A DNA stretch of 39,565 nucleotides from Escherichia phage vB_EcoP_ZX5, in sequence record MW722083.1; one strand, given 5' to 3'. A program made the translations under genes and the position numbers. The notes below the pieces were generated by a model that saw nothing but the letters and a program-made list of their open reading frames with translations, was not told where the DNA came from and made no database searches. Of the stretch, positions 19,208-39,441 are shown in pieces (the first letter of the stretch is position 1; every line of letters begins with the position of its first letter).

Positions 19208-19538
19208 ATCAGCAGCAGAGCGCAAAGCCGCTCAGAGAGCCAGACAAGTTGCATCTGGTGTGCGTAAGCTGGAAATTGTGCTTGATGCTCAGGAAATTGA
19301 AATGCTTGAGCGTAACTGTGCCGCGCGTCGCCCCGGGCGTGCGCCTTACGAATTTGGTGAGTATATAGCGTTACTGATCCGCCAGGATGATGCACGCGTG
19401 CACGGGCGTATAAAATCGATCAGCAGAAAACGTTGCGGTAAGTGCGGCGAGAGAGTTCCAGTTAATTCATGTCCGTGTAATGGTGACTCACAATGCTGGG
19501 TGACTAAAGGCTGGCATGAAACGAAATTAATAGTGTGA
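19200..19538 (+). CDS. small zinc-finger protein, candidate late-gene regulator
   Basis: 112 aa; C-terminal CGKCGERVPVNSCPCNGDSQC; last gene before the terminator preceding terS. Confidence 0.5.
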   Translation: MAKSAAERKAAQRARQVASGVRKLEIVLDAQEIEMLERNCAARRPGRAPYEFGEYIALLIRQDDARVHGRIKSISRKRCGKCGERVPVNSCPCNGDSQCWVTKGWHETKLIV

Positions 19539-19546
19539 CATGTCAC
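19535..19546. repeat. 12-bp perfect palindrome GTGACATGTCAC (copy 1) overlapping the stop codon of 19200..19538
   Basis: exact match, one of three copies. Confidence 0.9.
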
Positions 19547-19587
19547 GAGTAGATTATGCATGATGAATTTGATGGGTTTTGAATACT

Positions 19588-19613
19588 GCCGCCAACTATG
19601 GCGGCTTTATTTT
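19588..19613 (+). terminator. intrinsic terminator between the early-right operon and terS
   Basis: 7-bp stem GCCGCCA/TGGCGGC, loop ACTA, then TTTATTTT. Confidence 0.7.
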
Positions 19614-19624
19614 GCATGGTACTA

Positions 19625-19639
19625 TTACCACAACGGTAA
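19625..19639. promoter_or_regulatory. palindromic operator-like site TTACCACAACGGTAA just upstream of terS
   Basis: perfect match inside a longer near-palindrome CATGGTACTATTACC...GGTAACTATTACCATG. Confidence 0.45.
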
Positions 19640-19647
19640 CTATTACC

Positions 19648-20253
19648 ATGGTGGTTATGATGCCTGCTGAACCTAAAACCTATAAACGCAAATCAACGCA
19701 ATTTAAGCCACTAACAGCAATGCAGGAGGCTTATTGCCAGTCATACATCAAAACGCCTGAAAACCAGACTCAGGCAGCGATTAACGCAGGATTCTCTCCA
19801 AATACAGCGGCAGTTAAAGCCAGTGTCATGATGCGCGATGAACGCATTCAAAAACGGATTGCCGAGTTGATGGAGGAGCGCAACAAACGAATGCGCGTCA
19901 GTGCCGATTACGTTCTCATGCGCCTGGTGGAGATCGACCAGATGGACGTGATTGATATCCTCAACGACGATGGGAGCCTTAAGCCAATCCGCGAGTGGCC
20001 GAAAATCTGGCGCACTACGCTTAGCGGCTTTGATCTGTCATCGACCATCATGAACATGAACGAGGATTCGATAGAGACAATCCTCAAAAAAATTAAATGG
20101 CCTGACAAGGTGAAGAACCTCGAACTGATTGGTAAGCACGTCGACGTCAACGCATTCAAAGAACGCCTGGATGTTAATGTGAATGTGACAATTGCTGATC
20201 GCATAGCGGCAGCCAGGAAGCGACTCAAAGAACGTCAGGATGGTAATCAGTGA
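19648..20253 (+). CDS. terS: terminase small subunit
   Basis: 201 aa from ATG 19648; the track start 19579 would span a terminator and operator; position immediately before the large subunit. Confidence 0.7.
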   Translation: MVVMMPAEPKTYKRKSTQFKPLTAMQEAYCQSYIKTPENQTQAAINAGFSPNTAAVKASVMMRDERIQKRIAELMEERNKRMRVSADYVLMRLVEIDQMDVIDILNDDGSLKPIREWPKIWRTTLSGFDLSSTIMNMNEDSIETILKKIKWPDKVKNLELIGKHVDVNAFKERLDVNVNVTIADRIAAARKRLKERQDGNQ

Positions 20254-21725
20254 CAGATACAGCGTTATCTCCTGAAGAGCAGTTGATCGAGGATATTGCA
20301 GGGTTCACTCACGATCCGCTTGGTTATGCCCTCTATGCGTTCCCGTGGGGGGAAGAGGGGACTGAACTGGCACATGCTACCGGCCCACGTCAGTGGCAGG
20401 CTGATGCGTTCCGAGAGATACGTGATCACCTGCAGAATCCAGAGACGCGCTATCAGCCGCTTATGCTGGCACGCGCTTCTGGTCACGGTATTGGTAAATC
20501 CGCATTCATCTCAATGCTGATCAACTGGGGCATGTCCACTTGCGAGGATTGTAAGGTCGTGGTGACCGCCAACACCGACAACCAGCTACGAACGAAGACC
20601 TGGCCGGAAATTATCAAGTGGTCGAACCTTGCTATCACGAAAGACTGGTTTACCTGTACCGCTACCGCGATGTACAGCAATGATCCTGGACACGACAAGC
20701 GGTGGCGAGCTGACGCAATCCCCTGGTCTGAGCACAACACTGAGGCATTCGCCGGACTACACAACGAGCGCAAACGCATCATCGTGGTGTTTGATGAAGC
20801 GTCGAACATTGCGGATCTGGTGTGGGAAGTTGCCGAGGGTGCGCTTACGGACGAAGACACTGAGATTATTTGGGTGGCGTTCGGAAACCCTACACGTAAC
20901 ACCGGGCGTTTTCGCGAATGTTTCCGCAAATATAAACACCGCTGGAAAACTGCGCAGATTGACAGCCGGACGGTGGAAGGCACTAACAAACAGCAGTTGC
21001 AGAAATGGGTTGATGACTACGGGGAAGACAGCGACTTCGTTAAAATCCGTGTGCGTGGCATATTCCCTGATGCATCTGAATTGCAGTTTATCCCTACCGG
21101 TCTTACTGACGAGGCAATGAAACGGGTGGTAACCGCTGCGCAGGTTGCACATGCTCCGGTGATAATCGGCGTTGACCCGGCATACTCCGGCGTTGATGAC
21201 GCTGTGATATACCTGCGGCAGGGGCTACACAGTAAGGTGCTGTGGACTGGCAACAAGACTACCGACGATCTGATTATGGCGAAGCGTATCGCTGACTTTG
21301 AAGACCAGTATCAGGCTGACGCGGTGTTCATCGACTTCGGTTACGGAACCGGTTTGAAGTCAATCGGTGACGGCTGGGGTCGTACATGGCAACTTGTTCC
21401 GTTCGGTGGCGCGTCTACTGACCCGCAGATGCTCAACAAGCGTGGGGAGATGTTCAACTCATGCAAGACATGGCTGAGGCTCGGCGGCATGCTGGATGAC
21501 CAGGAAACAGCGGACGACCTGTCGGCAGCAGAGTACAAAGTTCGAGTGGACGGTAAAATCGTTATCGAACCGAAGGAAGATATCAAAGAGCGACTTGGGC
21601 GTTCTCCTGGTAAAGGCGATGCGCTACTGCTGACGTTTGCGTTCCCTGTGTCGAAGCGTCTGCGAATTCCCGGTCAGCAGAACCAGCAAGGCAAGGCCAT
21701 TACAGATTACGATCCCTATGCTTAA
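20250..21725 (+). CDS. terL: terminase large subunit
   Basis: 491 aa; Walker A-like GHGIGKS and nuclease region; GTG start overlapping the terS stop. Confidence 0.85.
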   Translation: MTDTALSPEEQLIEDIAGFTHDPLGYALYAFPWGEEGTELAHATGPRQWQADAFREIRDHLQNPETRYQPLMLARASGHGIGKSAFISMLINWGMSTCEDCKVVVTANTDNQLRTKTWPEIIKWSNLAITKDWFTCTATAMYSNDPGHDKRWRADAIPWSEHNTEAFAGLHNERKRIIVVFDEASNIADLVWEVAEGALTDEDTEIIWVAFGNPTRNTGRFRECFRKYKHRWKTAQIDSRTVEGTNKQQLQKWVDDYGEDSDFVKIRVRGIFPDASELQFIPTGLTDEAMKRVVTAAQVAHAPVIIGVDPAYSGVDDAVIYLRQGLHSKVLWTGNKTTDDLIMAKRIADFEDQYQADAVFIDFGYGTGLKSIGDGWGRTWQLVPFGGASTDPQMLNKRGEMFNSCKTWLRLGGMLDDQETADDLSAAEYKVRVDGKIVIEPKEDIKERLGRSPGKGDALLLTFAFPVSKRLRIPGQQNQQGKAITDYDPYA

Positions 21726-21775
21726 TCCGTTAGCGGGGATAATGACGGAGATATCCTCTGGTGAGGATAAAACAA

Positions 21776-21800
21776 AGCCAGCTCATCGGCTGGCTGTTTG
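21776..21800. terminator. hairpin between convergent terL and the minus-strand moron
   Basis: 7-bp stem AGCCAGC/GCTGGCT 21776-21782/21789-21795; U-tract better on minus strand. Confidence 0.45.
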
Positions 21801-21811
21801 TGACATGTCAC
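21800..21811. repeat. 12-bp perfect palindrome GTGACATGTCAC (copy 2)
   Basis: exact match 5 bp past the stop of 21816..22154 and abutting the hairpin. Confidence 0.9.
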
Positions 21812-21815
21812 GGTG

Positions 21816-22154
21816 TTATTGCTCGCTTAACTTCTGCTTCAGCAAGTAACCTTCAAGCATCCAGATTTTGTTTACAGCATTCTGCCGGGCAATCTTCCGA
21901 CCAATTTCCGCATCAAAGTTTTCTGGGCTTGCACAGGCGCTCTCTCCGGTGACGGTGAAGCCATTTTGTAGAGTTAATACACAAAATGTCAGCAGAGCCA
22001 AACTGTCGTGATAGTCATCGCCAGTTGCAATAGCTCCATCAGCAGCAGTGAAGTACGTTTCCGCAAGAATAATGCTTTCGATATGGTCTGGCGTAACGCG
22101 CGGGGCGGCTAAACCTTTAGCCTGAATTTCAGATTCAATGTCTTTGTCACTCAT
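21816..22154 (-). CDS. hypothetical protein (possibly N4 gp49 / Sf6 gene 66 family), minus-strand moron in the late region
   Basis: 112 aa with AAGGTGA SD; family guess from recollection only. Confidence 0.5.
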   Translation of the reverse strand: MSDKDIESEIQAKGLAAPRVTPDHIESIILAETYFTAADGAIATGDDYHDSLALLTFCVLTLQNGFTVTGESACASPENFDAEIGRKIARQNAVNKIWMLEGYLLKQKLSEQ

Positions 22155-22170
22155 AGTCTATTCTCACCTT

Positions 22171-22193
22171 AAAAAATGCCCGGCGAACCGGGC
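22171..22193 (-). terminator. terminator-like hairpin immediately upstream of the moron RBS
   Basis: 6-bp stem GCCCGG/CCGGGC 22178-22183/22188-22193, loop CGAA; A6 on plus gives U6 on minus. Confidence 0.45.
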
Positions 22194-22270
22194 GAACTGG
22201 AGGCAATGAGTTATGCCTCCCGTGGCTGTACTGGTTTACAGCATGAAGTCATCGCAATGGCGTCCTGCTG

Positions 22271-22313
22271 TAAAAATGGCGGTGATAGTCCTTCAAGGGA
22301 AACCATCACCGCC
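22271..22313 (-). terminator. tRNA-trailer terminator-like hairpin
   Basis: 8-bp stem GGCGGTGA/TCACCGCC 22278-22285/22306-22313 with 20-nt loop; A-run 22272-22276 on plus gives U-run on minus. Confidence 0.4.
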
Positions 22314-22356
22314 AAGCCCCTGGAACTTCTGGCATCACGGTCCTTAGGCGTGATTC

Positions 22357-22433
22357 TGGCGTGGCATGCAGGATTCGAACCTGCGACCAACCGCTTAGAA
22401 GGCGGTTGCTCTGTCCAGCTGAGCTAATGCCAC
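22357..22433 (-). tRNA. tRNA-Arg (anticodon UCU), CCA encoded
   Basis: 77 nt; acceptor GTGGCAT/ATGCCAC, D-arm GCTC...GAGC, anticodon arm ACCGC-CTTCTAA-GCGGT, T-arm GCAGG-TTCGAAT-CCTGC, discriminator G, CCA. Confidence 0.85.
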
Positions 22434-22755
22434 AACGCTGAGAGCACTTAGCCTGTTAAGGCGCCACACTTTGTCGCGGCTCCATAAATGCTCTCATCGT
22501 TGTACCCTCGTCTCTTCCGAGGCGTCACACCGAATCGCCGGGATGGTGAATCCCCGTGCGCGGAATAAAACCGCTCGACTTGCACATTCCGGCTACCTGG
22601 TTCGTTTGCCCGAGCAAGGGAGGGTGCCCCTTAAACGTATCCAGACCGCTATCGGCGCATGTGCCATACGCCGTACTGCTCAAAATAAAAGCTCACTCCA
22701 CCTGTTCAATTTAACGACAAGCCAGTCAGGTTAGTAACCGGAATGAACTCTTTGG

Positions 22756-22770
22756 TTACCTGAAAGGTAA
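22756..22770. promoter_or_regulatory. palindromic operator-like site TTACCTGAAAGGTAA upstream of the head operon
   Basis: perfect match, identical 17-mer to 2423..2439. Confidence 0.45.
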
Positions 22771-22811
22771 TAATTTGTGCGTTAAATGTCAACTACCTAC
22801 GATAAATAAAT

Positions 22812-22835
22812 CATATGTGGTTAAATTGGTAATAA
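22812..22835 (+). promoter_or_regulatory. conserved promoter-proximal element CATATGTGGTTAAATTGGTAATAA upstream of the head operon
   Basis: 19 of 24 identical to 2467..2490. Confidence 0.4.
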
Positions 22836-22860
22836 TTTAATTGCGTACGGAGTCATTGAT

Positions 22861-23067
22861 ATGTGCATGGGTAGCTCACCATCAGTGCCTGCAACACCAG
22901 AAGTTCAGGCAGCACCACAGGAGCAGGATGCCGCCGTTGTTGATGCCCGCGACGAAGAAACTCGTCGCCGTCGCGCTGCTGCTGGTCGTAGTTCTACGCT
23001 GCTTACCGGTTCTCAGGGCGACACATCAACCGCTAATACCAGCGGTAAAACGCTGCTTGGTCAGTAA
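22861..23067 (+). CDS. small hypothetical virion-module protein
   Basis: 68 aa; ACGGAG SD; its RBS context GGAGTCATTGA is repeated before the portal gene. Confidence 0.45.
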   Translation: MCMGSSPSVPATPEVQAAPQEQDAAVVDARDEETRRRRAAAGRSSTLLTGSQGDTSTANTSGKTLLGQ

Positions 23068-23081
23068 CCGGAGTCATTGAA

Positions 23082-24761
23082 ATGGCGGAAACAACTAAAG
23101 AGCGATTGAACAAACAGTTCGCACAACTTGAAAGCGAGCGTCAGTCGTTCGAGCCGCACTGGCGCGAGTTGAGTGATTACATCAACCCGCGTGGTTCCCG
23201 CTTTCTGACTTCTGAGGTTAACCGTAACGATCGACGCAATACACGCATTATTGATTCGACCGGGACTATGGCGGCGCGCACTCTCGCCAGCGGCATGATG
23301 TCAGGCATCACAAGCCCCGCGCGTCCGTGGTTTCGCCTGGCTACGCCAGATCCTGAAATGATGGATTATGGCCCTGTTAAGTTGTGGCTTGAGGCGGTGC
23401 AGAACCGCATGAACGATATGTTCAATAAGTCGAATCTCTATCAGTCGCTGCCGCAGTTATACGGAAGCCTCGGCACATACAGCACTGGTGCAATGGCAGT
23501 GCTGGAGGATGACGAGGACATCATTCGCACAATGCCATTCCCGATAGGCAGTTACTACCTGGCTAACTCACCTCGTGGCAGTGTGGACACCTGTTTTCGC
23601 AAGTTCTCTATGACTGTTCGTCAGCTTGTTCAGGAGTTCGGGCTAAATAACGTCAGCGAATCCGTAAAAAGCATGTGGGAAAGCGGAACCTACGAGAAGT
23701 GGATTGAAGTGATGCATTCGGTTTACCCGAACATTGACCGCGATACATCGAAGCTGGATAGCAAGAACAAGCCATTCAAATCGGTTTATTACGAGGTTGG
23801 TGGCGATAACGACAAGTTGTTGCGTGAGTCCGGATTCGATGAGTTTCCAATTATGGCTCCGCGCTGGGAAGTTAACGGCGAAGATGTTTATGGATCATCA
23901 TGCCCGGGTATGCTGGCGCTTGGACCTGTTAAGGCATTGCAGCTTCTCCAGAAGCGCAAGTCGCAGTTGATTGATAAAGCCACCAATCCGCCGATGGTTG
24001 CTCCGACTTCCCTCAAGAATCAGCGTGCCTCCCTTCTTCCTGGCGACATCACGTATATCGATCAGATTACTGGTCAGGATGGTTTCAGGCCTGCTTATCT
24101 GGTTAACCCCAGTACAGCAGATTTGGTGGCAGACATTCAGGACACCCGTCAAATCATTAACAGCGCCTACTTTGTCGATCTGTTCATGATGTTGCAGAAC
24201 ATCAATACCCGCTCGATGCCTGTTGAAGCGGTGATCGAAATGAAAGAAGAAAAACTTCTGATGTTGGGGCCGGTTCTGGAGCGTCTGAACGACGAATGTC
24301 TTAATCCTCTCATTGACCGCGCTTTCTCGATGATGGTGCGTAAAAACATGCTGCCGCCACCGCCTGACGCGATGGAAGGTATGCCCCTGAAGGTCGAATA
24401 CATTTCCGTCATGGCTCAGGCGCAGAAGTCTATCGGCCTGTCCAGTCTGGCGTCTACGGTCAACTTCATTGGTCAACTTGCGCAAGCGAAACCAGAAGCT
24501 CTCGACAAACTCAACGTTGATCAGGCGATCGATGCATTCGCTGATATGTCCGGAGTGTCTCCAACCGTCATTGTTCCGCAGGAACAGGTTGAGCAGGCTC
24601 GCCAGCAACGGGCACAGCAACAACAGCAGCAACAAATGATGGCGATGGGGATGGCGGCGGCACAGGGTGCCAAGACGCTAAGCGAAGCTAAAACTTCGGA
24701 TCCGAGTGTTTTGTCAGCTATGGCGAATGCAGTTAGTGGTCAGGGTGGGCAATCACAATGA
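23082..24761 (+). CDS. portal (head-to-tail connector), T7 gp8-like
   Basis: 559 aa; Gln/Ala/Met-rich C-terminus as in T7 gp8 as recalled. Confidence 0.85.
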   Translation: MAETTKERLNKQFAQLESERQSFEPHWRELSDYINPRGSRFLTSEVNRNDRRNTRIIDSTGTMAARTLASGMMSGITSPARPWFRLATPDPEMMDYGPVKLWLEAVQNRMNDMFNKSNLYQSLPQLYGSLGTYSTGAMAVLEDDEDIIRTMPFPIGSYYLANSPRGSVDTCFRKFSMTVRQLVQEFGLNNVSESVKSMWESGTYEKWIEVMHSVYPNIDRDTSKLDSKNKPFKSVYYEVGGDNDKLLRESGFDEFPIMAPRWEVNGEDVYGSSCPGMLALGPVKALQLLQKRKSQLIDKATNPPMVAPTSLKNQRASLLPGDITYIDQITGQDGFRPAYLVNPSTADLVADIQDTRQIINSAYFVDLFMMLQNINTRSMPVEAVIEMKEEKLLMLGPVLERLNDECLNPLIDRAFSMMVRKNMLPPPPDAMEGMPLKVEYISVMAQAQKSIGLSSLASTVNFIGQLAQAKPEALDKLNVDQAIDAFADMSGVSPTVIVPQEQVEQARQQRAQQQQQQQMMAMGMAAAQGAKTLSEAKTSDPSVLSAMANAVSGQGGQSQ

Positions 24762-25054
24762 CAGATTACGAAGACGATCAACTGAAAGAAGAAAACGCCC
24801 GTAAGCAACGTGACATGGCACAGCGTGAAATTGATGACATTTGCTTTGTCATGAGCAGTGAACAGGGGCGTCGCGTTGTCTGGTCGGTGCTGGAGAAAGG
24901 CCGTGTGTTTTCCGCTATCTCACCGATGGACGCTATGGCAATGGCATTTAATGAGGGGCAACGCAATCTGGCGCTGGAACTGTTTCAGCGCGTTATGGCG
25001 CATTGCCCTGAACAGTATTTGAAGATGGCCAAAGAGGCCAGTGAACAGGAGTGA
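24758..25054 (+). CDS. hypothetical protein between portal and scaffold
   Basis: 98-aa ORF with ATGA overlap to the portal stop. Confidence 0.5.
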   Translation: MTDYEDDQLKEENARKQRDMAQREIDDICFVMSSEQGRRVVWSVLEKGRVFSAISPMDAMAMAFNEGQRNLALELFQRVMAHCPEQYLKMAKEASEQE

Positions 25055-25056
25055 TC

Positions 25057-25752
25057 ATGAATTTATTTGAGCGTTTGCTGTATCGCCGTCTTTGCAATGA
25101 GCAACCAGTCGATGGTGGAGCAGCTCCGGCTGCGTCAGAACCGTCAGCGCCTGCAGGTGATAACCCTGCTCCAGTTGGTGATCCATCACAACAGGAAGGT
25201 GATAAGCCACAACCTGTTGCTGATGGCGATAAACCTGCTGATGACAAAAAGCCTGAAAACGATAAGCATGATGAAAAAAAGGACGGCGATAAACCAGAGG
25301 GTGCGCCTGAAAAGTACGAGTTTCAGGCTGCCGAAGGCGTAGAGCTGGATACAGAAGCGTTGAAGGAATTCGAGCCGGTGGCGCGAGAACTAAACCTGAC
25401 CAACGAGCAAGCGCAAAAGCTGGTTGATGCTTATCCGAAGATTCTGGCAGGTGTTCAGCAGCGCCAGGCAGAAGCCTGGCAGAAAACAACCGAGCAGTGG
25501 GCTGCGGATGTAAAAGCCGACAAAGAAATCGGTGGCGACAAGTTGATTTCTAACCTTAGCGCCGCACAGCGTGCGCTTGACCAGTTCGGGACACCTGAAC
25601 TCAAAGAATATCTGAACACCACCGGGCTGGGTAATCACCCTGATCTGGTCAAAACGTTCGTGAAAATCGGAAAGGCGATGTCTGAAGATGGCATGGTCAC
25701 CGGTGGTAATGAAGGCCAGCGTAGTGCGGCCGAAGTGCTCTATGGCAAATAA
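25057..25752 (+). CDS. scaffolding protein
   Basis: acidic Pro/Ala/Asp/Lys-rich N-terminus, helical C-terminus; AGGAG SD before ATG 25057; between portal and capsid. Confidence 0.65.
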   Translation: MNLFERLLYRRLCNEQPVDGGAAPAASEPSAPAGDNPAPVGDPSQQEGDKPQPVADGDKPADDKKPENDKHDEKKDGDKPEGAPEKYEFQAAEGVELDTEALKEFEPVARELNLTNEQAQKLVDAYPKILAGVQQRQAEAWQKTTEQWAADVKADKEIGGDKLISNLSAAQRALDQFGTPELKEYLNTTGLGNHPDLVKTFVKIGKAMSEDGMVTGGNEGQRSAAEVLYGK

Positions 25753-25766
25753 GAGAGGAAATGACA

Positions 25767-26753
25767 ATGGCTGTTAAAGGCTTAACTGCGCTAACGCTGG
25801 CTGACTGGGGTAAGCGCGTCGATCCAAACGGGAAAGTCGATAAGATTATCGAGCTTCTCGGTCAAACTAACCCGATCCTTCAGGATATGCCTTTTGTCGA
25901 AGGGAACCTTCCTACCGGACACCGAACCACCATTCGTTCTGGTTTACCTTCAGCTACCTGGCGTTTGCTGAACTATGGCGTACAGCCAAGCAAATCAACC
26001 ACAGTGCAGGTAACCGATTACGTTGGCATGCTGGAAACCTATGCGGAAGTCGATAAGTCACTGGCTGATCTGAACGGCAATACCGCCGAATTCCGCCTTT
26101 CTGAAGACCGCGCATTTATTGAAGCGATGAATCAGCAGATGGCGCAGACGCTGTTTTATGGTGATTCCAGCGTTAACCCTCAGCAGTTTATGGGACTGTC
26201 CTCCCGCTATTCCAGCCTGTCTGCGGGTAATGCTCAGAACATCATTGATGCTGGTGGCACGGGTACAGATAACACCTCAATCTGGTTAGTGGTGTGGGGC
26301 GAAAACACCGTGCATGGCATCTTCCCGAAAGGGCAGAAGGCTGGCATCCAGATGGAAGATAAAGGCCAGGTGACACTGGAAGATGCTAATGGTGGCAAGT
26401 ACGAAGGCTATCGCACCCATTATAAATGGGATAACGGACTTGCTCTGCGTGACTGGCGTTATGTTGTTCGCATTGCAAACATCGATGTCAGCAATCTTTC
26501 AGAACCTTCCTCTGCCGCAAATATTGCGAAGTTGATGGTTAAAGCACTGCATCGCATTCCAAACCGTGGCATGGGCCGCCCGGTGTTCTACATGAACCGC
26601 ACTGTAGGCCAGGCTCTTGATCTGCAATCTCTGGAGAAAACATCTCTGGCTATCAGCGTAAAAGAGACAGAAGGCGAGTGGTGGACTTCATTCCGTGGTG
26701 TACCAATCCGTGAAACTGATGCGCTTCTGGAAACAGAAGCCCGCGTGGTCTAA
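25767..26753 (+). CDS. major capsid protein
   Basis: about 328 aa after the scaffold gene; AGAGAGG SD; size and position typical. Confidence 0.8.
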   Translation: MAVKGLTALTLADWGKRVDPNGKVDKIIELLGQTNPILQDMPFVEGNLPTGHRTTIRSGLPSATWRLLNYGVQPSKSTTVQVTDYVGMLETYAEVDKSLADLNGNTAEFRLSEDRAFIEAMNQQMAQTLFYGDSSVNPQQFMGLSSRYSSLSAGNAQNIIDAGGTGTDNTSIWLVVWGENTVHGIFPKGQKAGIQMEDKGQVTLEDANGGKYEGYRTHYKWDNGLALRDWRYVVRIANIDVSNLSEPSSAANIAKLMVKALHRIPNRGMGRPVFYMNRTVGQALDLQSLEKTSLAISVKETEGEWWTSFRGVPIRETDALLETEARVV

Positions 26754-26804
26754 CGCCTGTTATTAACCTGTGGGTCGTAACAGACCCACTAATGGAGAAA
26801 GAAG

Positions 26805-27242
26805 ATGATCACCGACAAACTGTTGATGTTCTCAGAAGCTCAGGCGGTTACGAATACCGCGGCTTCTACTGACGTAATCGATCTCGGTCCAATTGACGGA
26901 AAACGTCGTGATATCGGCGTGGGTTACCCGCTTGAGTTTTGGGCGCTGGTTAACACAGCCGCCGCAGCAAGCGGTGATGCAACTGTAAACATCCAGTTGC
27001 AGACGAGTGAGGATAACAGCTCATGGACCACTATTTATGATAGTGGTGCACTGGCAAAGACCGCCCTGACAGCAGGTAAACGAGTTGTTTCTGCAAAGGT
27101 GCCTGCCGGTGTTCAGCGATATCTGCGTGTTAACTACTCCGTCGCAACTGGCCCACTAACGGCTGGCGAATTCACTGCGGGTATCAGTCTTGATGTTGAT
27201 GCCAATACGCCGTATCCGATCCGCTCAAAAGTAACTGGTTAA
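26805..27242 (+). CDS. capsid decoration / accessory head protein
   Basis: 145-aa ORF after capsid with GGAGAAAG SD. Confidence 0.45.
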   Translation: MITDKLLMFSEAQAVTNTAASTDVIDLGPIDGKRRDIGVGYPLEFWALVNTAAAASGDATVNIQLQTSEDNSSWTTIYDSGALAKTALTAGKRVVSAKVPAGVQRYLRVNYSVATGPLTAGEFTAGISLDVDANTPYPIRSKVTG

Positions 27243-27252
27243 GGTGATATCG

Positions 27253-27582
27253 ATGTCAGGTGAGAAACCAAGATACCGCGTTCTGCGCCTCTCTCATATC
27301 CATAACACTCTGTGGCCGGAGGGGGCAGAAATCGAATACGAAGGTGAGCCTGGTAGCGCACTGGAACCTGTTAACGATGCAGCCAGACAGGCAAAAGTTG
27401 CAGGAAAGGTGTCAATGGCAGCAACCAGCACCAAAATCATCAACGATGTGTCAGATGATGGTGAACTGGATAAGCTCCGTGAAGAGTACGAATTGCTCTT
27501 TAACGAGAAGCCACACCATAACGCCAAAGCAGAAACGCTCCGCGAGAAGATCGCAGATAAGCGTAAAGAACTGGGCGTGTAA
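27253..27582 (+). CDS. small hypothetical structural-module protein
   Basis: ATG 27253 with AAGGTGA SD. Confidence 0.45.
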   Translation: MSGEKPRYRVLRLSHIHNTLWPEGAEIEYEGEPGSALEPVNDAARQAKVAGKVSMAATSTKIINDVSDDGELDKLREEYELLFNEKPHHNAKAETLREKIADKRKELGV

Positions 27583-27598
27583 GCCTCGCGAATCAGAC

Positions 27599-27620: not shown

Positions 27621-27632
27621 GCAGGAGTGTAT

Positions 27633-31032: not shown

Positions 31033-31496
31033 TGATCGATGTTCGAATTATTCCCGCTACCGAAGAGCATCTTCAGATGATTTTGCCGGATGTTCGTCAG
31101 GCTGATATTGACGAACTGTATGCGGTATCGCTGATGACTACCGAAGATGCGCTGCGTGTTGGTCTGCGCACTGCGACTATGGCCTGGTCAGGGTTCGCGA
31201 ACGGAGAGCTGGTAACCATGTTTGGTGTATCTCCGGCGTCAATGATCGGTGGCAATGGTACGCCATGGCTGGTCGGGACCAGCCGTATTGAAAAATATCA
31301 GAAGACATTTCTGCGCCACTGCCGCCCTGTATTGCAGCAGATGCTGGCAGTTTATCCGCGCCTGGAAAACTATGTCGACGAGCGAAACCATGTTGCCAAA
31401 GCATGGCTGCACTGGCTTGGATTCAGGCTTGAAGAAGCCGCGCCTTATGGTGCTCTTGGTCTTAATTTCCACAGATTTCACATGGAGAGAAAATAA
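31032..31496 (+). CDS. hypothetical virion protein (internal virion protein A position)
   Basis: 154-aa ORF coupled by ATGA to the upstream gene. Confidence 0.45.
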   Translation: MIDVRIIPATEEHLQMILPDVRQADIDELYAVSLMTTEDALRVGLRTATMAWSGFANGELVTMFGVSPASMIGGNGTPWLVGTSRIEKYQKTFLRHCRPVLQQMLAVYPRLENYVDERNHVAKAWLHWLGFRLEEAAPYGALGLNFHRFHMERK

Positions 31497-32041
31497 TGTG
31501 CGATCCGGTTATTGCTGGTGGCGCAATGCTCGCCATGAGTGGCATTCAGGCATACACCCAGTACCAACAGGGAAAGTATGCCTCGAAGGTTGCAGAAGCG
31601 AACGCAGATATAGCCACAGCTCAGGCAAATGATGCAATAAACAGAGGTAACGCTGAAGCTGAGCAACGGCGCAGAGAGACCCGACAGCGGCTTGGTACAC
31701 AGGCGGCGACAATGGGGGCTACCGGCGCTGATTTATCTACAGGTAACGCGCTGGATATATTTGGCGACACTGCCCAGTTTGGCGCTCTTGATTCTCTGAC
31801 GACGGTGAATAACGCGCAACGCGAGGCTTACGGTTATCAGGTTCAGGCTGCCAACTATAAAGCAGAAGCCAGTTCAGCCCGTAAACAGGGGAATGTGGGA
31901 GCAGCAACAACATTGCTCACTGCGCCTCTGAAGGCATACGGTGCGTACCAGATGTTTGGTGGGACGTGGAGTCCGTTTACTCAAAGCACCCCTGCGCCAA
32001 TCGGGGCAGCAGCAGGAACCAGATTACCCGGAGGATTATAA
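31496..32041 (+). CDS. internal virion protein B-like (T7 gp14-like)
   Basis: 181 aa; begins MC, Ala/Gln-rich, similar size to T7 gp14. Confidence 0.55.
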   Translation: MCDPVIAGGAMLAMSGIQAYTQYQQGKYASKVAEANADIATAQANDAINRGNAEAEQRRRETRQRLGTQAATMGATGADLSTGNALDIFGDTAQFGALDSLTTVNNAQREAYGYQVQAANYKAEASSARKQGNVGAATTLLTAPLKAYGAYQMFGGTWSPFTQSTPAPIGAAAGTRLPGGL

Positions 32042-34554
32042 TGCCAGTCGTACCAACAGTATCCGGCCGTCAGGTTCAGAGCCGTGGAGTTCAGTCAGCA
32101 GGCTTGCAGACGTTTTCTCAGCCAGGTATTGGTGATGCTTTTGTTCGGGCAGGGACAGAGGCAATTGATGTTTTTGGTCAGGCAAAACAGCGTGCCAATA
32201 TCGCTCTGGCTCAGGAGGCATCTCTTAACCTCAGTCAGATAAGCAGTGATCTGCTGAATAATCCTGAAACAGGATTGCTTAACCTGAAAGGGAAAAATGC
32301 TATTGGAAAAGGTCAGGAGTATACGCAGCAGTTTGATGCTCAGGTCGAACAACTGGCTATGTCGCTGCCGGATGAACAGGCTCGTAATGCTTTCATGCAG
32401 CAGGCGCAGCAGCAGCGCATTCAGTTCACTACGCAGGCCGGGCGGCACGAGATAGGGCAAATAAATGCCTACGAAGAAGGCCAGTTTCAGGCTACGCTGC
32501 TGAACAATGGTAAAAATGCCGCAGCATTGTATGGCGACAACGCCGCATACGTATTGGCTAATAAGCAAACTTTCCAGCAAATTGAGGATTACGGCATTGC
32601 ACATGGCTGGAGTGACGAGCAAATCCAGGCCAAGAAAATCGAGTTTAAAGAGAAGGTTGCTGATGCTGCATTGTCCCAGTGGTCGGCAAACAATGCGACC
32701 GCATTCATCCAAAGTAATGGCGAGTTAAGTGATACTGCTGCTGGAGCTCGCCGTGCTGTAGCAGATAGTGACTCTTCCGAGCGTGCCCGTGGCATACGCA
32801 ACAATAACCCAGGAAATCTCGAATACAGCAAAACTAATCCGTGGGTAGGCCAGACCGGTGATGATGGTCGATTTGCTAAATTCGAAACACCTGAACACGG
32901 GATTCGTGCATTAGGGCGGAACCTGATGTCGTATCAGAGGCAGGGTATTGATACCGTCAGCGAGATAATTAATCGCTGGGCACCGCCTACTGATAAAAAT
33001 GACACTATGTCGTATATCAAAGCAGTGTGCGAACAACTTGGCGTTTCTGCTGATGAGCCTCTCGATGCATCTAATCCTGATACCCTGAAGGCGCTTTGTG
33101 CAGCCATTATCCATCATGAGAACGGTAGCCAGCCATACAGTGATCAGCAGTTAACTGCTGGTGTCAGTGCAGCACTTGGTTTATCAACAATTCCAACCAA
33201 CACCAAACGCTATACCGGTAATGCAGCATTCGATGCGGCATCTCCTGAGGCGCAGGCAAGTTTTATGCGACAGGCGGATCAACTGCGTCGGCAGCAGCAG
33301 GCTGAATATAAAACGATGATTGACAGCCAGGTTCGCGATGCGACAGCTGCGTATATGCGTGGCGTTGAATTTCCTAACCCACCTGGTGAGGCTGATTTTA
33401 TTGCAGCTTATGGAGTAAGAGAAGGAAACCTGCGATATACCGAGTTCAGAAATACGCAAATCGCCGGACAGTATATAGGCTCTTTCCGCAACATGCCGAC
33501 AAGCAGCATTACAGCATATGTTGAGCAATTACGCCCGGATACTGGTGAGACAGGGGAGGGTTATGCGGCACGAGCCGCTCTTTATGACAACGTTGTGTCG
33601 GCTGCAAGTCAGGTGATAAAGCAGCGACAGGCTGATCCTGTACAGTTCTCTCTTGCCGCCGGACAGGCAAAGCCTATCGACATGAGCAATAAGGATAACT
33701 TTGGACAGAGCGTTGCCTTGCGTGCTGCTCAGGTCAGTGACCTTGCTAAGTCATATGGCACTCCACTGACGTTCTTTTCCAAAGACGAGGCCAATCAGAT
33801 CGGTGTTTTCTTTCGTGATGCGCCCGTTTCCCAACAGGCAGCATATCTCGATACCATCAGGCAGAGCACTGGTGGTGGGCAGGTGTATATGTCAGCACTA
33901 CAGCAGATCAGTGCCAACGCTCCATCTGCTGCCGTTGCCGGGATACTGATGGATAAGCCAGGTGGTATTTTGGCAGAAAAAAACTGGTTTAATCCGGATG
34001 TTTCCGTGTCTCCAGAAACCGCTGCGCAGACAATTCTTGCTGGCGCGGCGGCTCGTAAAGGTACTGATGACGCGAAAGGTATTCCGATGCCTAAAGATGC
34101 TGATCTTCGCCTTGAGTTTTCTGACATGGTGAAGAATGCATTTGCTGGTGATGCTCAGGGGGCATCAATGGCATACGAGATCGCAAAGGACTATTACGCT
34201 GGTGTGATGGCGAAAAAAGGCGTGGTATCAGGCGAAATTGACAATGATATCTGGAAACAGGCTGTTAACGTAGCTACAGGTGGCGTGCATGACTATAACG
34301 GAATGGGGAATGTTCTTTTGCCGTGGGGAATGTCTGCAGAGCAATTCGATAAGCAGGTTAATCAGGCTTGGAATGAACAAGTTGTTGGCACAGGGATAAA
34401 AACACCGCCTGGTCAGTATGGTTTGCAAAGTTACGGCGATAGTCAGTACCTGGTGAAACTTGGTACTGGTTATCTGCTAAAAGATGATGGTTCTCCCGTT
34501 GTTCTTGATCTGACACAGAAGCGTCAGAGATTCTCCGGAGATATTCCGCAATGA
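32041..34554 (+). CDS. internal virion / ejection protein with a possible enzymatic domain
   Basis: 837 aa from ATG 32041 (TAATG overlap); RGIRNNNPGNLEY motif near nt 32790. Confidence 0.6.
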   Translation: MPVVPTVSGRQVQSRGVQSAGLQTFSQPGIGDAFVRAGTEAIDVFGQAKQRANIALAQEASLNLSQISSDLLNNPETGLLNLKGKNAIGKGQEYTQQFDAQVEQLAMSLPDEQARNAFMQQAQQQRIQFTTQAGRHEIGQINAYEEGQFQATLLNNGKNAAALYGDNAAYVLANKQTFQQIEDYGIAHGWSDEQIQAKKIEFKEKVADAALSQWSANNATAFIQSNGELSDTAAGARRAVADSDSSERARGIRNNNPGNLEYSKTNPWVGQTGDDGRFAKFETPEHGIRALGRNLMSYQRQGIDTVSEIINRWAPPTDKNDTMSYIKAVCEQLGVSADEPLDASNPDTLKALCAAIIHHENGSQPYSDQQLTAGVSAALGLSTIPTNTKRYTGNAAFDAASPEAQASFMRQADQLRRQQQAEYKTMIDSQVRDATAAYMRGVEFPNPPGEADFIAAYGVREGNLRYTEFRNTQIAGQYIGSFRNMPTSSITAYVEQLRPDTGETGEGYAARAALYDNVVSAASQVIKQRQADPVQFSLAAGQAKPIDMSNKDNFGQSVALRAAQVSDLAKSYGTPLTFFSKDEANQIGVFFRDAPVSQQAAYLDTIRQSTGGGQVYMSALQQISANAPSAAVAGILMDKPGGILAEKNWFNPDVSVSPETAAQTILAGAAARKGTDDAKGIPMPKDADLRLEFSDMVKNAFAGDAQGASMAYEIAKDYYAGVMAKKGVVSGEIDNDIWKQAVNVATGGVHDYNGMGNVLLPWGMSAEQFDKQVNQAWNEQVVGTGIKTPPGQYGLQSYGDSQYLVKLGTGYLLKDDGSPVVLDLTQKRQRFSGDIPQ

Positions 34555-36353
34555 GTTACTTTGGCCTTAATCCAGTAAACCAGAATCAGCAGCTTGACGA
34601 AGCAGCATCAAATCCAGTTGGCTTTAACAGCGATGTTGGTTTTTTCGACAATGCTGTAGGAGCGGCATTGTCTGGTTTGTACTCCGGGCTGGTGGCAAAG
34701 CCAGATCAGTTGCTATGGGCAGGGATGGATAAAATCGTATCCCCGATTGCTCAGCTTGTTAACGAAAACACCTCGCTCAATGACACTTCAGTTTCATACA
34801 TTGCTGAGCAGAGAAAACTAGCAGAGCAGCAGGTTAAGCGGCTGACGCCTGATGCCGCGACAACCGGAACCGCCGGGCAGGTCCTTTATGGGTTGTTCGA
34901 TATGGGCGGGCAGGCTGTTGTCGGTACAACGCTCGGTGGTCCGGTCGGAGGTGCTGCGGCGGTAACTTCTCTACAGGGTTTTTCTGAGTTTGAACGGTTG
35001 ACAGCACAGGGTGTTGATTTCAGGACGGCGCAGGAAGCGGGATTAGTGCAGGGTATTACTGCTGGTGCCGGAACACTGATCCCTATGAGCCTCGGGTTAC
35101 GTGCTGGTGGTGCGCTGGCGGAAGGTGTGGCGGCTCAGCTTGCGCGGACGGGTGAAAGTTCAGTGCGACGCGCCGCAGCAACAGCAATACGTGCAACGCC
35201 AGATATTGCCTATGCCGCAGGTACAAATATTGCGTTCGGTATGGCACAGCGTGGGCTTACTGCAAAAACGCTTCGTGATGGTGGCTATAGCGAAATGGCT
35301 AACCAGTATGATGTGTTGGATCGACAGGCAATTGCTATTGATGCTGTTCTTGGGGTGGCGTTTGGTGGTGTCGGCAGATTTATTAACTCTCGCGGCGAGT
35401 CTACAAGCGCACCAAATTTTTCACCAGTTGATATTGATGCTGCACTGGCGGCGAATGCCGCTCATCATGCTGAAATTGATATTGCTCCCGGCGTTCCGAT
35501 CAACGTGCTTTCGCGTAATTCGCACATTCAGGCTCTGCGAAAAGCCATGTCTGATGTTAGCCAGGGGAGACCTGTAGACGTTGCCAGCATTGTTGAGTCT
35601 GCATCTTTCAGTGAAATTCCTGGGCGCAAGAGTCTGCTGTCTCAGGCAGTTAATGAGGCTCTGTCATCTGTAGATGATGGAGTAACGGCGCGCGCTATAG
35701 AAAATCGGTTGCTTGAAGAACAGGCCGCGCAGCTTTTGTCGCGTGGCGATAGAAAGGTTTACCAGTCTGAAATCGCTAATAGCCAACGAATTATTGAAAA
35801 TCTCACTGAACAGCGCGCACAAATTCTTGCAGAAGAGCCAACCGGTAGCGGTAAGGCTTTATCTCGTGCTCGATCAGATAAACAGGCCAGACTTCGCGAT
35901 ATTGACCAACGAATCCGGCAGGCACAAGAACGCCTGGAATTTTCTCGTAACGCGTTGGCGCCGCACGAGCCTGGAGGTCAGTTTTTTGAAGCTCGAGCAG
36001 AACTGGCACGACGACAGCAGGCAGAAAGTGAACTTAATGCTCAGGCTGTTTCATTCTATAAAACAGCAGAGGTCAGGACGCCAGAAGAAGTAGCTCCTTT
36101 TGAGCCCGGTAAGATATTGCAACAGACAGAACAAAAAATGATGGCAGATCCGGCAGGAGATATTGATCTGCGCATAGCTGAAGACTCGCTGCTTGAATCA
36201 CCTGACATGATAATCACCGTGCTGGATGATGATGGTAATCCACAATCGCGCAGTGCGCGTGAAGCACTGGATGAAGCGAACAGGGAAAGTGAGCAGGCAA
36301 TACAGGATTCCAGCCTGTTTGATGTCGCTGTGGCGTGTTTCTTGAGAGGTTAA
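34551..36353 (+). CDS. internal virion / ejection protein
   Basis: 600-aa Ala/Gly-rich ORF coupled by ATGA. Confidence 0.6.
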   Translation: MSYFGLNPVNQNQQLDEAASNPVGFNSDVGFFDNAVGAALSGLYSGLVAKPDQLLWAGMDKIVSPIAQLVNENTSLNDTSVSYIAEQRKLAEQQVKRLTPDAATTGTAGQVLYGLFDMGGQAVVGTTLGGPVGGAAAVTSLQGFSEFERLTAQGVDFRTAQEAGLVQGITAGAGTLIPMSLGLRAGGALAEGVAAQLARTGESSVRRAAATAIRATPDIAYAAGTNIAFGMAQRGLTAKTLRDGGYSEMANQYDVLDRQAIAIDAVLGVAFGGVGRFINSRGESTSAPNFSPVDIDAALAANAAHHAEIDIAPGVPINVLSRNSHIQALRKAMSDVSQGRPVDVASIVESASFSEIPGRKSLLSQAVNEALSSVDDGVTARAIENRLLEEQAAQLLSRGDRKVYQSEIANSQRIIENLTEQRAQILAEEPTGSGKALSRARSDKQARLRDIDQRIRQAQERLEFSRNALAPHEPGGQFFEARAELARRQQAESELNAQAVSFYKTAEVRTPEEVAPFEPGKILQQTEQKMMADPAGDIDLRIAEDSLLESPDMIITVLDDDGNPQSRSAREALDEANRESEQAIQDSSLFDVAVACFLRG

Positions 36354-36358
36354 ATTAA

Positions 36359-38833
36359 ATGAGACAGGAATGTATACAAGCGGTTCAGCAGGCGGCGCAG
36401 CGCATGTTAACGGCGCGAGAAATACAGAACATTGAAGACCGCATTTATCGAAATATGCGCTCCATTGCTCGTGATGACCCTATGTCGTGGCGACAACTTT
36501 CCGAATCAGAGCGGCTATATCGAGCAGCACAATTGGCATCTGAAGAATTACAGCGAGAAGCGGCATTAAAGAAACGTCGTGTGGCCCTCACTATAGCCGC
36601 ACGTCAGAGATTGGATAAATTTATCAATAGCTATCAAGGGGCTGATGGGAAACTTGGCGCTCTTAACCGTACTATTGCTTTTAATGCAGACGGTAAATCG
36701 AATTTCCTCTCTGTTGAATCCAGAACAAAAGCCACTCGTGATTATGCATTGAGTCAATTGCAGGAGGCATTTGAAGCAGTTGATCCTCGCTTTTTTGGCC
36801 TGTTTGAAGATGAAGCTGGCGTGCGTGACCTGGTATATGAAATGCGAGGGCAAAATACTGGCAATGCTAAAGCAAGAAAAGGTGCTAAGGCGTGGAGAGA
36901 AGTGACAGAGCTACTGCGCCGCCGGTTTAATGATGCTGGTGGGGACATTGGCTATCTCGAAAACTGGGGGCTCCCTCAACATCATTCTATGGAAAAGGTT
37001 GGGGCGGTATCAAAGGATAAGTGGGTTAGCGATGTTATAGGTAAGCTGGATCGCAAATATTATACCCGAGTCGATGGACAACTGATGAACGATGCCGAGT
37101 TGTCTGCATTTCTTGGAGAGGCTTATAACACGATCGCTACTGGTGGGCTGAATAAGCTTACTGATACCGGAATGCGAATTTCCGGCGCACGTGCTAACCG
37201 GGGTAATGCATCACGACAGATACATTTCAAAGATGCAGATTCCTATCTGCAATATCAGCAACTTTATGGCGATCGCTCTCTATGGGAAATCATGGTCGGT
37301 CACCTGGAAGGTATCAGTAAAGATATTGCACTGGTGGAAACATATGGCCCAAACCCCGATCATGTTTTCCGCTCTCTTCTTGATCAGGTGAAGGCAGAAA
37401 CGGCAACAGCTAACCCGAGTAAAACCGGTAAAGTCGAGCGGCTGGCGAACAACACAGAGAATCTGTACAACTTTATTTCCGGAAAGACACAGCCTGTAGC
37501 GAATCCGCACATCGCGCGATGGTCTGACAATATCCGCAACTGGCTGGTTGCCAGCAGACTCGGATCCGCGTTGCTGTCATCGTTCTCTGATCTTGGAACC
37601 ATGTATCTGTCTGCGAAGGTTACCAACCTTCCAATGAACCAGTTATTCCGCAACCAGCTTGAAGCTATGGACCCAACGAACCGTACAGAACTTGCGCGGG
37701 CGCGCCGCGCTGGTCTGGCGATGGAATCTCTACTTGGCAGCGTTAACCGCTGGGCGATGGATAATATGGGGCCGTCTGTGTCTCGTTGGGCTGCAACGGC
37801 GGTAATGCGTGCCAGTGGGCTTACAGCATGGTCAGATGCGCACAAGCGCGCCTATGGCGTAACCATGATGGGAAGCCTGGGAGAAGTAGTGTCACGGACA
37901 CCAGACCTTCGTAGCCTCGATGATTCTGATTTTCGTATCCTGAAAAGCAAAGGGATTACTGACACAGACTGGAGCGTATGGAAGCTGGCGCAACAGGAGG
38001 ACTGGGGGAACGGTAATAATACGATGCTGACACCGGAAAGCATTATGCGTATCCCTGATTCAGCAGTTAAACATCTTGGTGAGCCTGAACGCGTGAAATT
38101 TGAGGCAATGCGTAAACTGCTCGGTGCCGTAACTGAAGAAGTTGATATGGCTGTTATTACACCGGGTGCACGTGAGCAACTGATAACCGGTTCTGGTATT
38201 CAGCGTGGAACATGGAAAGGTGAATTAACGAGAAGTGTTTTCCTGTTTAAATCGTTCCCTATCTCGGTGGTTATGCGTCACTGGTCACGCGCTATGGGTA
38301 TGCCGTCGGCTGGTGGGCGTGCGGCATATATTGCGACGTTTATTGCCAGTACGACCATTCTTGGCGCTTTGTCGCAGCAACTTAACGACCTTGCGTCTGG
38401 TCGTAATCCTCGCGAGATGACAGGAGAAGATGCTGCTAAATTTTGGCTTGGTGCTCTACTGAAAGGTGGTGGTCTTGGCCTTTACGGTGACTTTTTATTG
38501 TCAGATCACACTAGGTACGGAAGCGGCGCGCTGGCGTCGATGCTTGGCCCGGTAGCTGGTCTGGTTGATGACGTAGTGAAGATTGCTCAGGGCATACCGT
38601 TAAATGCTGTGGAAGGGAAGAATGAGCAGACTGGTGGTGATCTGGTTAAGCTGGGGAAAGGTCTGATGCCAGGTGCGAATCTCTGGTACTTAAAGGCGGC
38701 TCTCGATCACATGATCTTTAACCAGATGCAGGAGTATTTTTCACCAGGCTATTTGCGTAAAATGGAGCAACGTTCGAAGAAAGAGTTTAACCAGACATAC
38801 TGGTGGCGACCACAGGATGTCACTCCGCAATAA
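36359..38833 (+). CDS. large internal virion / ejection protein
   Basis: 824-aa ORF, last large gene of the late operon. Confidence 0.6.
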   Translation: MRQECIQAVQQAAQRMLTAREIQNIEDRIYRNMRSIARDDPMSWRQLSESERLYRAAQLASEELQREAALKKRRVALTIAARQRLDKFINSYQGADGKLGALNRTIAFNADGKSNFLSVESRTKATRDYALSQLQEAFEAVDPRFFGLFEDEAGVRDLVYEMRGQNTGNAKARKGAKAWREVTELLRRRFNDAGGDIGYLENWGLPQHHSMEKVGAVSKDKWVSDVIGKLDRKYYTRVDGQLMNDAELSAFLGEAYNTIATGGLNKLTDTGMRISGARANRGNASRQIHFKDADSYLQYQQLYGDRSLWEIMVGHLEGISKDIALVETYGPNPDHVFRSLLDQVKAETATANPSKTGKVERLANNTENLYNFISGKTQPVANPHIARWSDNIRNWLVASRLGSALLSSFSDLGTMYLSAKVTNLPMNQLFRNQLEAMDPTNRTELARARRAGLAMESLLGSVNRWAMDNMGPSVSRWAATAVMRASGLTAWSDAHKRAYGVTMMGSLGEVVSRTPDLRSLDDSDFRILKSKGITDTDWSVWKLAQQEDWGNGNNTMLTPESIMRIPDSAVKHLGEPERVKFEAMRKLLGAVTEEVDMAVITPGAREQLITGSGIQRGTWKGELTRSVFLFKSFPISVVMRHWSRAMGMPSAGGRAAYIATFIASTTILGALSQQLNDLASGRNPREMTGEDAAKFWLGALLKGGGLGLYGDFLLSDHTRYGSGALASMLGPVAGLVDDVVKIAQGIPLNAVEGKNEQTGGDLVKLGKGLMPGANLWYLKAALDHMIFNQMQEYFSPGYLRKMEQRSKKEFNQTYWWRPQDVTPQ

Positions 38834-38844
38834 AAGGAGATATG

Positions 38845-38967
38845 ATGGTTCAAATAACTTTTATTGTACTAATATGTGCAGCGTTTTTATGCTATTCATA
38901 CATTTTGATAAAAATGGGTTTCAATTGGAATCTCTGTTGCGTGCAGCGGCATGGTTCGGCTTTGTAG
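38845..38967 (+). CDS. small hydrophobic peptide (AT-rich moron)
   Basis: 40 aa not in the track; AAGGAG 38834-38839, ATG 38845 after 5-nt spacer; alternative overlapping 62-aa frame 38817..39005. Confidence 0.3.
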   Translation: MVQITFIVLICAAFLCYSYILIKMGFNWNLCCVQRHGSAL

Positions 38968-39052
38968 TATTCGGAATTGTATTGTTCGGAAGAATAATAA
39001 AATAACTAGTTAATTTGTGGATTGGTGCTGTTTTTCCATGATAGGGGTAATT

Positions 39053-39433
39053 ATGAGAAAAGTATTTTTGATTTTTGGATTTATGCTTCTCGTTGGATGC
39101 CAGTCAGCTGCACAGTTTGAAAGAAATATGCTTACGTGGCGCGGGCAGAGTATAGACGCAATGGTTCAGCAGTGGGGGTATCCTCAGGGAGAGCTTACAT
39201 CTCCAGATGGAAACAGAGTGTATGTTTACTCAAGCTCTGGTAGTTATAACGTACCACAAACCACAACGTATAATACTACGTCTAATCTAATTGGTAATAC
39301 TATATATTCAAACACATACGCAACAACTGATGGCGGTTATACACTCCATTTCAGTTGCTCTGTTTACGTTGAGTTTGGTGCTGATAAGATTATTAAAAAT
39401 GTTACATGGCGCGGTAATAATTGCGTTGCGTGA
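39053..39433 (+). CDS. lipoprotein, candidate superinfection-exclusion or surface-modifying moron
   Basis: MRKVFLIFGFMLLVGC signal peptide with lipobox; AT-rich relative to neighbours; followed by a terminator. Confidence 0.65.
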   Translation: MRKVFLIFGFMLLVGCQSAAQFERNMLTWRGQSIDAMVQQWGYPQGELTSPDGNRVYVYSSSGSYNVPQTTTYNTTSNLIGNTIYSNTYATTDGGYTLHFSCSVYVEFGADKIIKNVTWRGNNCVA

Positions 39434-39441
39434 CATGTCAC
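39430..39441. repeat. 12-bp perfect palindrome GTGACATGTCAC (copy 3) overlapping the lipoprotein stop codon
   Basis: exact match; abuts the terminator hairpin. Confidence 0.9.

Follow-up and report, generated by a model that had tools for sequence, protein, structure and literature searches.

The site of the Escherichia coli Ter macrodomain, matS, is the 13-base-pair (bp) sequence GTGAC[AG]N[CT]GTCAC (PMC3603311; PMC6907758), with GTGACATTGTCAC as its consensus (PMC8669397), and it is read by MatP through a central ribbon-helix-helix that is also the dimerisation domain of the protein (PMC12756933). In a survey of 500 Escherichia and Salmonella prophages, Bobay et al. did not find the 13-bp matS at all, from which they concluded that the site is avoided (PMC3603311). 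Here we describe a 12-bp perfect palindrome, GTGACATGTCAC, of Escherichia phage vB_EcoP_ZX5 (record MW722083.1; the whole stretch of 39,565 nucleotides [nt] was analyzed and is called the window below), together with a 112-amino-acid (aa) protein whose gene ends within one copy of it. The window is an epsilon15/phiV10-like temperate podophage of the genus Uetakevirus and appears to be the whole genome in circular permutation. The Uetakevirus palindrome equals the matS consensus minus its central base. Prophages avoid the 13-bp matS according to the earlier work, whereas many carry this 12-bp form, which occurs at nearly every locus that has the gene.

Three exact copies of the 12-mer are present in the window, at the positions reported in the first-pass annotation (Table 1), and none of 100 dinucleotide-preserving shuffles of the window contained one. 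A near-match search returned a single further sequence, GTGACATGGCAC at 24810, which lies within a coding region and drifts among relatives. As had also been noticed from the letters alone, copies 1 and 3 overlap TGA stop codons in the same register, and all three have a terminator hairpin at their side, 4 nt away in the case of copy 2. Read along the incoming gene's own strand, each of the three sites has the stop codon first, then the palindrome and then the terminator. The 12-mer itself is not an intrinsic terminator, as it folds weakly and lacks a T run; the real terminators are separate, strong hairpins with T runs alongside. Its predicted RNA fold of -1.2 kcal/mol is the same as that of its shuffles, which bears out the initial view that a stable RNA hairpin is unlikely. 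A small hairpin of the 3' untranslated region, acting with the terminator or bound as RNA, is accordingly the least probable of the explanations weighed here, with a probability close to negligible. All three copies are transcribed just before a terminator hairpin, and zinc-finger phage proteins can bind RNA, Mu Com being an example. However, in addition to the poor fold, an Rfam 15 scan of the whole window matched no family at the sites (only isrK, C4 and a tRNA, all elsewhere), the bases of the "stem" are invariant without compensatory changes while the "loop" varies, and copies in phages related to N15 lie away from terminators, one of them antisense inside repA.

The arrangement seen at site 1 follows the gene into other types of phages. 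Homologues with 30 to 60% identity in Pantoea phage AH07, a P2-like Yersinia phage and the telomere phage N15 have GTGAC-NN-GTCAC across their TGA. When viral contigs were ranked by similarity to N15 gp46, the motif was at offset -1 from the stop in 76 of 80 and 9 to 269 nt downstream in the remaining four; a scan ranked on a Vibrio homologue and a set of 20 chromosomal prophages agreed with this. In three sets of loci from unrelated phage types, the motif lay over the stop codon of the homologue in 76 of 80, about 50 of 60 and 78 of 80. The combined set of 244 loci (4.18 Mb) contained 405 occurrences of GTGAC-N2-GTCAC, distributed over 242 loci, and both loci without a site end at a contig edge just past the gene. 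Only the N2 spacing was enriched: spacers of 0, 1 and 3 to 8 nt yielded 0 to 7 sites against about 4 expected, the N3 spacing of the 13-bp matS was found in none of the 244 loci, all 405 sites being N2, and the inverted arrangement GTCAC-N2-GTGAC was likewise absent from the set. After dereplication, more than 93% of the sites were flanked by Y and R, giving the consensus Y-GTGAC-N2-GTCAC-R. The spacer itself depends on the lineage (AT in Uetakeviruses, TG in N15-like and GC in P2-like phages), and the half-sites are invariant. Judged by these sequence comparisons, gene and site make up a single cassette that is inherited as a unit in at least four types of phages unrelated to one another. An N15-like sequence with an enterobacterial-type cassette was also present in a contig labelled Limoniibacter endophyticus (L348); the assembly is presumably alphaproteobacterial, and the occurrence is probably contamination rather than a sign of the true host.

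The half-sites are perfect matS half-sites, GTGACA/TGTCAC (PMC8669397), so that host MatP itself might bind the 12-bp sites and be borrowed by the phage. We regard this as very improbable indeed, because the exclusive N2 spacing looks like avoidance and because a host protein provides no reason for the linkage to a phage gene. A 1-bp change of spacing usually abolishes binding by a rigid dimer. The phage system is probably insulated from host MatP, since its spacing is one base shorter. Of the other host regulators considered, CRP (N6 spacing), FNR, SlmA (GTGAGTACTCAC) and LexA, none fits, and only matS has the same half-sites.

The 112-aa protein is predicted to have a basic N-terminal helix and a ribbon-helix-helix, followed by a C-terminal Cys cluster (C79, C82, C91, C93, C99). 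Its sole sequence annotation is "transcriptional regulator" (phrog_536). It belongs to no Pfam family, with no match for 36 family members at E values up to 1, has no relative of solved structure by PDB sequence or profile search, and a Foldseek search with a first model found nothing. The family comprises about 1,000 clusters at 90% identity, for which the listed source names are all "hypothetical protein" or "phage protein". An AlphaFold model of the monomer, built from 137 sequences, shows a basic helix (residues 5 to 18), an extended segment, helices 30 to 43 and 52 to 75, and a Cys-rich tail. A weak NCBIfam match to the CopG-like YbfE (E 0.068) and a PF10723 match on one homologue both agree with the modelled fold, and the protein likely belongs to the ribbon-helix-helix class according to this model. 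Homology to MatP was not detectable by hhalign (E 0.29, 0.38 and 0.62), and a hidden Markov model of the family ranked MatP 683rd among decoy open reading frames (ORFs).

The stop-codon linkage, the N2-only spacing and the ribbon-helix-helix model favor a site for a dimeric protein and point to the 112-aa protein as the candidate binder, both of which had been put forward in the first-pass annotation. This protein is the most economical candidate because its gene is the only one identified as common to these unrelated phage types, and a dimer of it probably binds the sites. A lead concerning lysogen expression of N15 gp46, from telomere-phage proteomics (PMC12042878), was dropped, as the "gp46" of phage NAR688 is the cB repressor. 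Two extra GTGAC half-sites lie 30 to 50 nt upstream of site 1 within the gene (19483-19505); they stem from GGTGAC and GGGTGAC, which code for the conserved C-terminal residues G-D and W-V-T.

Within the genus, the identical 12-mer stands at the same three relative positions in Salmonella phage epsilon15, E. coli phage phiV10 and Enterobacter phage Tyrion, in flanks that are only about 76 to 82% identical or unrelated; the exception is copy 1 of phiV10, which has one mismatch and is split across the ends of the record. Of 80 close relatives, 76 had an exact site 1 and two more had it with one mismatch; site 2 was present in 67 of 78 (56 exact), and site 3 in all 78 (71 exact). One sub-lineage (L028) has an unlike terminator after terL, and yet the same palindrome occurs again 3 to 4 nt further on. 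Across the relatives, at least seven different antisense accessory ORFs end 4 to 5 nt from site 2, and site 3 with its terminator forms an island between three types of upstream and at least three types of downstream sequence. Many relatives keep site 2 next to other accessory genes, and we therefore rejected the idea that it belongs to the Sf6 gp66-like accessory gene. In the epsilon15-like lineage, 104 of 132 sites adjoin a terminator, compared with 7% of random positions. Adjacency to terminators is specific to the epsilon15-like lineage.

In a comparison of loci L009-L088 and L249-L328, the slots beside sites 2 and 3 (21812-22860 and 38834-39429) were hypervariable, with at least seven types of cargo at site 2 and three at site 3. 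Homology between relatives breaks within a few bp of these two sites, and upstream and downstream flank types occur in several combinations. As a description, the early idea of module boundaries therefore stands, but nothing shows the site to be a recombination substrate, and it is very improbable that the palindromes are mere linkers through which accessory genes are exchanged, with no need of a binding protein. A length of 12 bp is too short for homologous exchange, and the breakpoints fall after a common linker of 4 to 7 nt plus the stop codon. Recombination also leaves unexplained the exact conservation across genomes that have diverged by 20 to 25%, the absolute N2 rule, the Y/R flanks, the copy in N15 repA and the linkage to a single protein family.

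Table 1. Coordinates of the palindromes, the predicted binder gene and neighboring features in the window
Feature	Coordinates	Strand	Remarks
Site 1	19535..19546		GTGACATGTCAC; bases 2-4 are the TGA stop of ORF 19200..19538
Site 2	21800..21811		Flanked by the terL terminator and by the antisense accessory gene's 3' end
Site 3	39430..39441		Covers the TGA of ORF 39017..39433; terminator directly adjoins
112-aa protein gene, predicted binder	19200..19538	+	phrog_536; homologue of epsilon15 gp49 and N15 gene 46
Intrinsic terminator	19588..19605	+	Closes the early-right operon, 41 nt past site 1; equivalent annotated in epsilon15
Promoter-like context	19617..19658	+	Extended -10 TGgTACTAT and two operator-like sites ATTACC-N5-GGTAAY just upstream of 19659
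terS-terL unit	19659..21725	+	Bracketed by sites 1 and 2
Terminator hairpin	21776..21795	-	Common to terL (+) and the antisense accessory gene (-); terminator annotated here in phiV10
Accessory gene	21816..22154	-	PF13876, N4 gp49/Sf6 gp66 family; 3' end faces site 2; replaceable in relatives
Accessory ORF	39017..39433	+	phrog_3716; ends inside site 3; other ORFs instead in phiV10 and further relatives
Intrinsic terminator	39442..39459	+	Directly past site 3; annotated in phiV10 and epsilon15

The existence, conservation and spacing specificity of the sites and their linkage to the gene are established, and the model points to a likely fold class. To account for them, we propose that the three palindromes serve as operator-type DNA sites for a dimer of the 112-aa protein, an explanation to which, taken as a whole, we give about an even chance. 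The sites would act where the early, packaging and structural transcription units end, past the last stop codon but ahead of the intrinsic terminator, with swappable accessory genes as neighbors. There, a bound dimer would form a boundary or roadblock that reinforces the three terminators; it would keep neighboring and convergent units from reading through into each other and could arrest RNA polymerase arriving from either side. The dimer at its own stop codon could in addition feed back on the end of its own operon and limit it. The role of boundary or roadblock, considered by itself, is put forward tentatively.

The surroundings of terS bear on this proposal. The packaging unit bracketed by copies 1 and 2, whose identification as terS-terL in the first pass agrees with Pfam Terminase_2 and the phiV10 annotation, seems to start from its own extended -10 promoter, located downstream of the terminator and overlapped by repressor operators. 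Insulation fits better than read-through, because the unit seems to have this promoter of its own. The extended -10 (19617-19625) is kept in epsilon15, and the epsilon15 record has an annotated repressor site in this position. ATTACC-N5-GGTAAT, the operator of the epsilon15 repressor, is a different motif from the 12-mer and has 15 matches in the window with up to two mismatches, against 1.1 expected; they are scattered along the whole genome and include 977, 2042, 2422, 8025, 13047, 13109, 13821, 14206, 16108, 16170, 19624, 19642 and 22755. As operators lie upstream of terS, the portal block, the tailspike gene and the integrase gene, the repressor seems to control late units directly. The mechanically called terS ORF and the phiV10 annotation start at a TTG (19579-19662). 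The ATG at 19659 is the likelier start, since the TTG would place the strong terminator and two operators inside the gene; it gives terS an epsilon15-like length and has a GGTGG ribosome site. In some relatives (L235, 10334-10670, and L339), a small ORF with its own promoter, 85 aa long in L235, is inserted between site 1 and terS; it has a perfect LexA box, TACTGT-N8-ACAGTA, and its -35 begins 6 to 7 nt past the site.

At the other two sites, the hairpin before site 2 has a good T run on the minus strand only, and copy 3, which the first-pass annotation took for the end of the late operon, does close the main structural block. It is not the end of the whole late region, because the window seems circularly permuted and the tailspike and lysis genes follow beyond it, after an antisense antirepressor module.

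The position of the gene also invites comparison with a late switch of the Q type, in which the protein, as the last product of the early operon, would bind just upstream of terminators and let RNA polymerase read through into terS and, past site 3, into the tailspike gene. The gene is placed like a lambdoid Q, as the last early gene right before a terminator and late genes, and sites 1 and 3 are ordered site, then terminator, on the plus strand. Like Q proteins, the 112-aa protein would join a DNA-binding domain to a Cys cluster. Site 1 further gives a weak promoter-like match with GTGACA as the -35; as a promoter inside site 1 it was rejected, the consensus match being only weak and its form not conserved. 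We nevertheless consider a Q-like switch improbable. In N15, the homologue coexists with a canonical Q (gene 40). In the P2-like Yersinia phage it coexists with an Ogr-like regulator, and the late promoters of that phage have no site. At site 2, the palindrome comes after the hairpin on the plus strand. The late units, moreover, have their own repressor-operator promoters, and no Pfam Q family matches the 112-aa protein. A general function as late-gene activator was discarded on the same grounds, N15 having Q and the P2-like Yersinia phage having the Ogr-like gene and the stop-codon site only.

Several observations weigh against the proposal of a boundary at terminators. At sites 1 and 3, transcription reaches the palindrome before it reaches the terminator, so that a roadblock would make the terminator partly redundant. 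Site 2 is absent from 11 of 78 relatives, in which foreign AT-rich DNA or other sequence follows terL and replaces the whole region of terminator and site 2. None of 100 N15-like sites lies near a terminator. Besides the stop-codon site, N15-like phages have two further copies (N15 33237 and 28550), one within repA, where a stretch of 17 nt is invariant and third codon positions upstream vary, and the other past gene 33, where it stands 24 nt ahead of the -35 of a promoter-like element, in a region which we take to be the immA antirepressor promoter; this suggests that the extra copies have regulatory roles unlike those in the window. P2-like phages usually have the stop-codon site only, and the sequence that follows the cassette varies by lineage, being a terminator, xis, another ORF or a LexA-box promoter with a small moron. 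Finally, the structural model is of moderate confidence, with a predicted local distance difference test (pLDDT) score of 74, rising to about 80 over residues 1 to 80.

Only the gene and at least one site are constant across lineages, and the variation downstream argues that a role requiring the protein plus one site on the genome fits better than a fixed transcriptional target. The protein could then mark the phage genome at the 12-bp sites, in the manner of MatP or ParB, for DNA organization rather than transcription, as an orthogonal phage system resembling MatP/matS; possible purposes are unloading or excluding MukBEF-type structural maintenance of chromosomes (SMC) complexes, pairing or bridging copies, and positioning DNA. 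The usual single site of P2-like phages and the N15-like sites away from terminators favor this reading, which we hold to be unlikely all the same; for this window, we rank the boundary reading slightly higher. A further thought, which we likewise give a low probability, is that temperate phages of enterobacteria, vibrios and aeromonads carry a minimal module of this kind, orthogonal to MatP and having one to three fixed sites, for instance to evict or stall SMC complexes or to pair copies, and that the module is a candidate evolutionary relative or source of MatP/matS.

Other elements of the window were recorded in passing. Just upstream of ORF 1078..1773 (-), which lies where phiV10 has a Bro-N antirepressor, Rfam identified two RNAs on the minus strand, C4 antisense RNA at 1821-1906 and Hfq-binding isrK at 1931-2006; together they look like an antirepressor control module of the P1 immI or N15 immA type. 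The accessory region that separates site 2 from the portal block has a tRNA-Arg gene (anticodon TCT, 22357-22433) on the minus strand, opposite to the late genes. A perfect 16-bp palindrome, CAGCAGTTAACTGCTG, at 33145-33160 inside the gene for an 862-aa structural protein, is kept in phiV10 (13647); it may be a coding coincidence or a site.

In the searchable literature, which does not extend to the epsilon15 and phiV10 genome papers, we found no paper with the 12-mer and nothing on matS-like or MatP-like elements in phages. The GenBank records of epsilon15 and phiV10 annotate terminators and repressor, IHF and RNase III sites, and nothing at the palindromes. Among 5,426 complete E. coli genomes, 675 have the equivalent region; a common prophage thus carries an undescribed system of a protein and its site. 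It offers a sharply defined protein-DNA pair that can be put to the test and obeys a strict rule of spacing, and a natural experiment on how one bp of spacing can set a phage system apart from the Ter-organizing MatP/matS of the host. If the boundary role is true, the system would be an enterobacterial counterpart of stoperators and could explain how the accessory-gene slots beside sites 2 and 3 are insulated; if the role in DNA organization is true, phage biology would be connected with the control of SMC complexes and macrodomains.

Among known systems, the stoperators of cluster A mycobacteriophages (L5, Bxb1) are likewise short scattered protein sites in short intergenic spaces at gene ends, and are presumed to block RNA polymerase during elongation. 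However, they number 20 to 35 per genome and are asymmetric, oriented and bound by the immunity repressor, whereas here one to three palindromic sites are distinct from the repressor operators. Ribbon-helix-helix repressors (P22 Arc, Mnt, CopG/RepB, omega, ParG, antitoxins) have operators at promoters, usually upstream of their own gene; in contrast, the phage gene has its invariant site at its 3' end, the additional sites mark the ends of operons, and the protein has an extra basic N-terminal helix and a C-terminal Cys cluster. Lambda-type Q is similar in gene position and in joining DNA binding to a zinc or Cys motif, but shares no homology and coexists with the homologue in N15, and the phage sites are not confined to a late promoter. 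In parB-parS and sopB-sopC, including the dispersed SopB sites of N15, a cis site is also tightly linked to the gene of its binder, with extra palindromes elsewhere, but the phage cassette lacks a partner ATPase, has a different fold and is also found in integrating phages.

Compared with MatP/matS, the phage site has identical inverted half-sites, GTGAC/GTCAC, in a short perfect palindrome, and a few such sites are scattered over the replicon. Its binder is predicted to be a ribbon-helix-helix protein, as is the matS-reading, dimerizing domain of MatP, and the host range of the phages overlaps the taxa that have MatP. In contrast, the site is 12 bp with N2 without exception, not 13 bp with N3; the protein, of 112 aa, has neither four-helix bundle nor coiled coil and has a Cys cluster; sequence homology is not detectable; and the sites are on phage genomes, here beside terminators, one of them being fused to the stop codon of its own protein. 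Although not a member of the MatP/matS family, the phage system would thus, as far as sequences can tell, be comparable to MatP/matS in its working or its construction as regards the DNA site.

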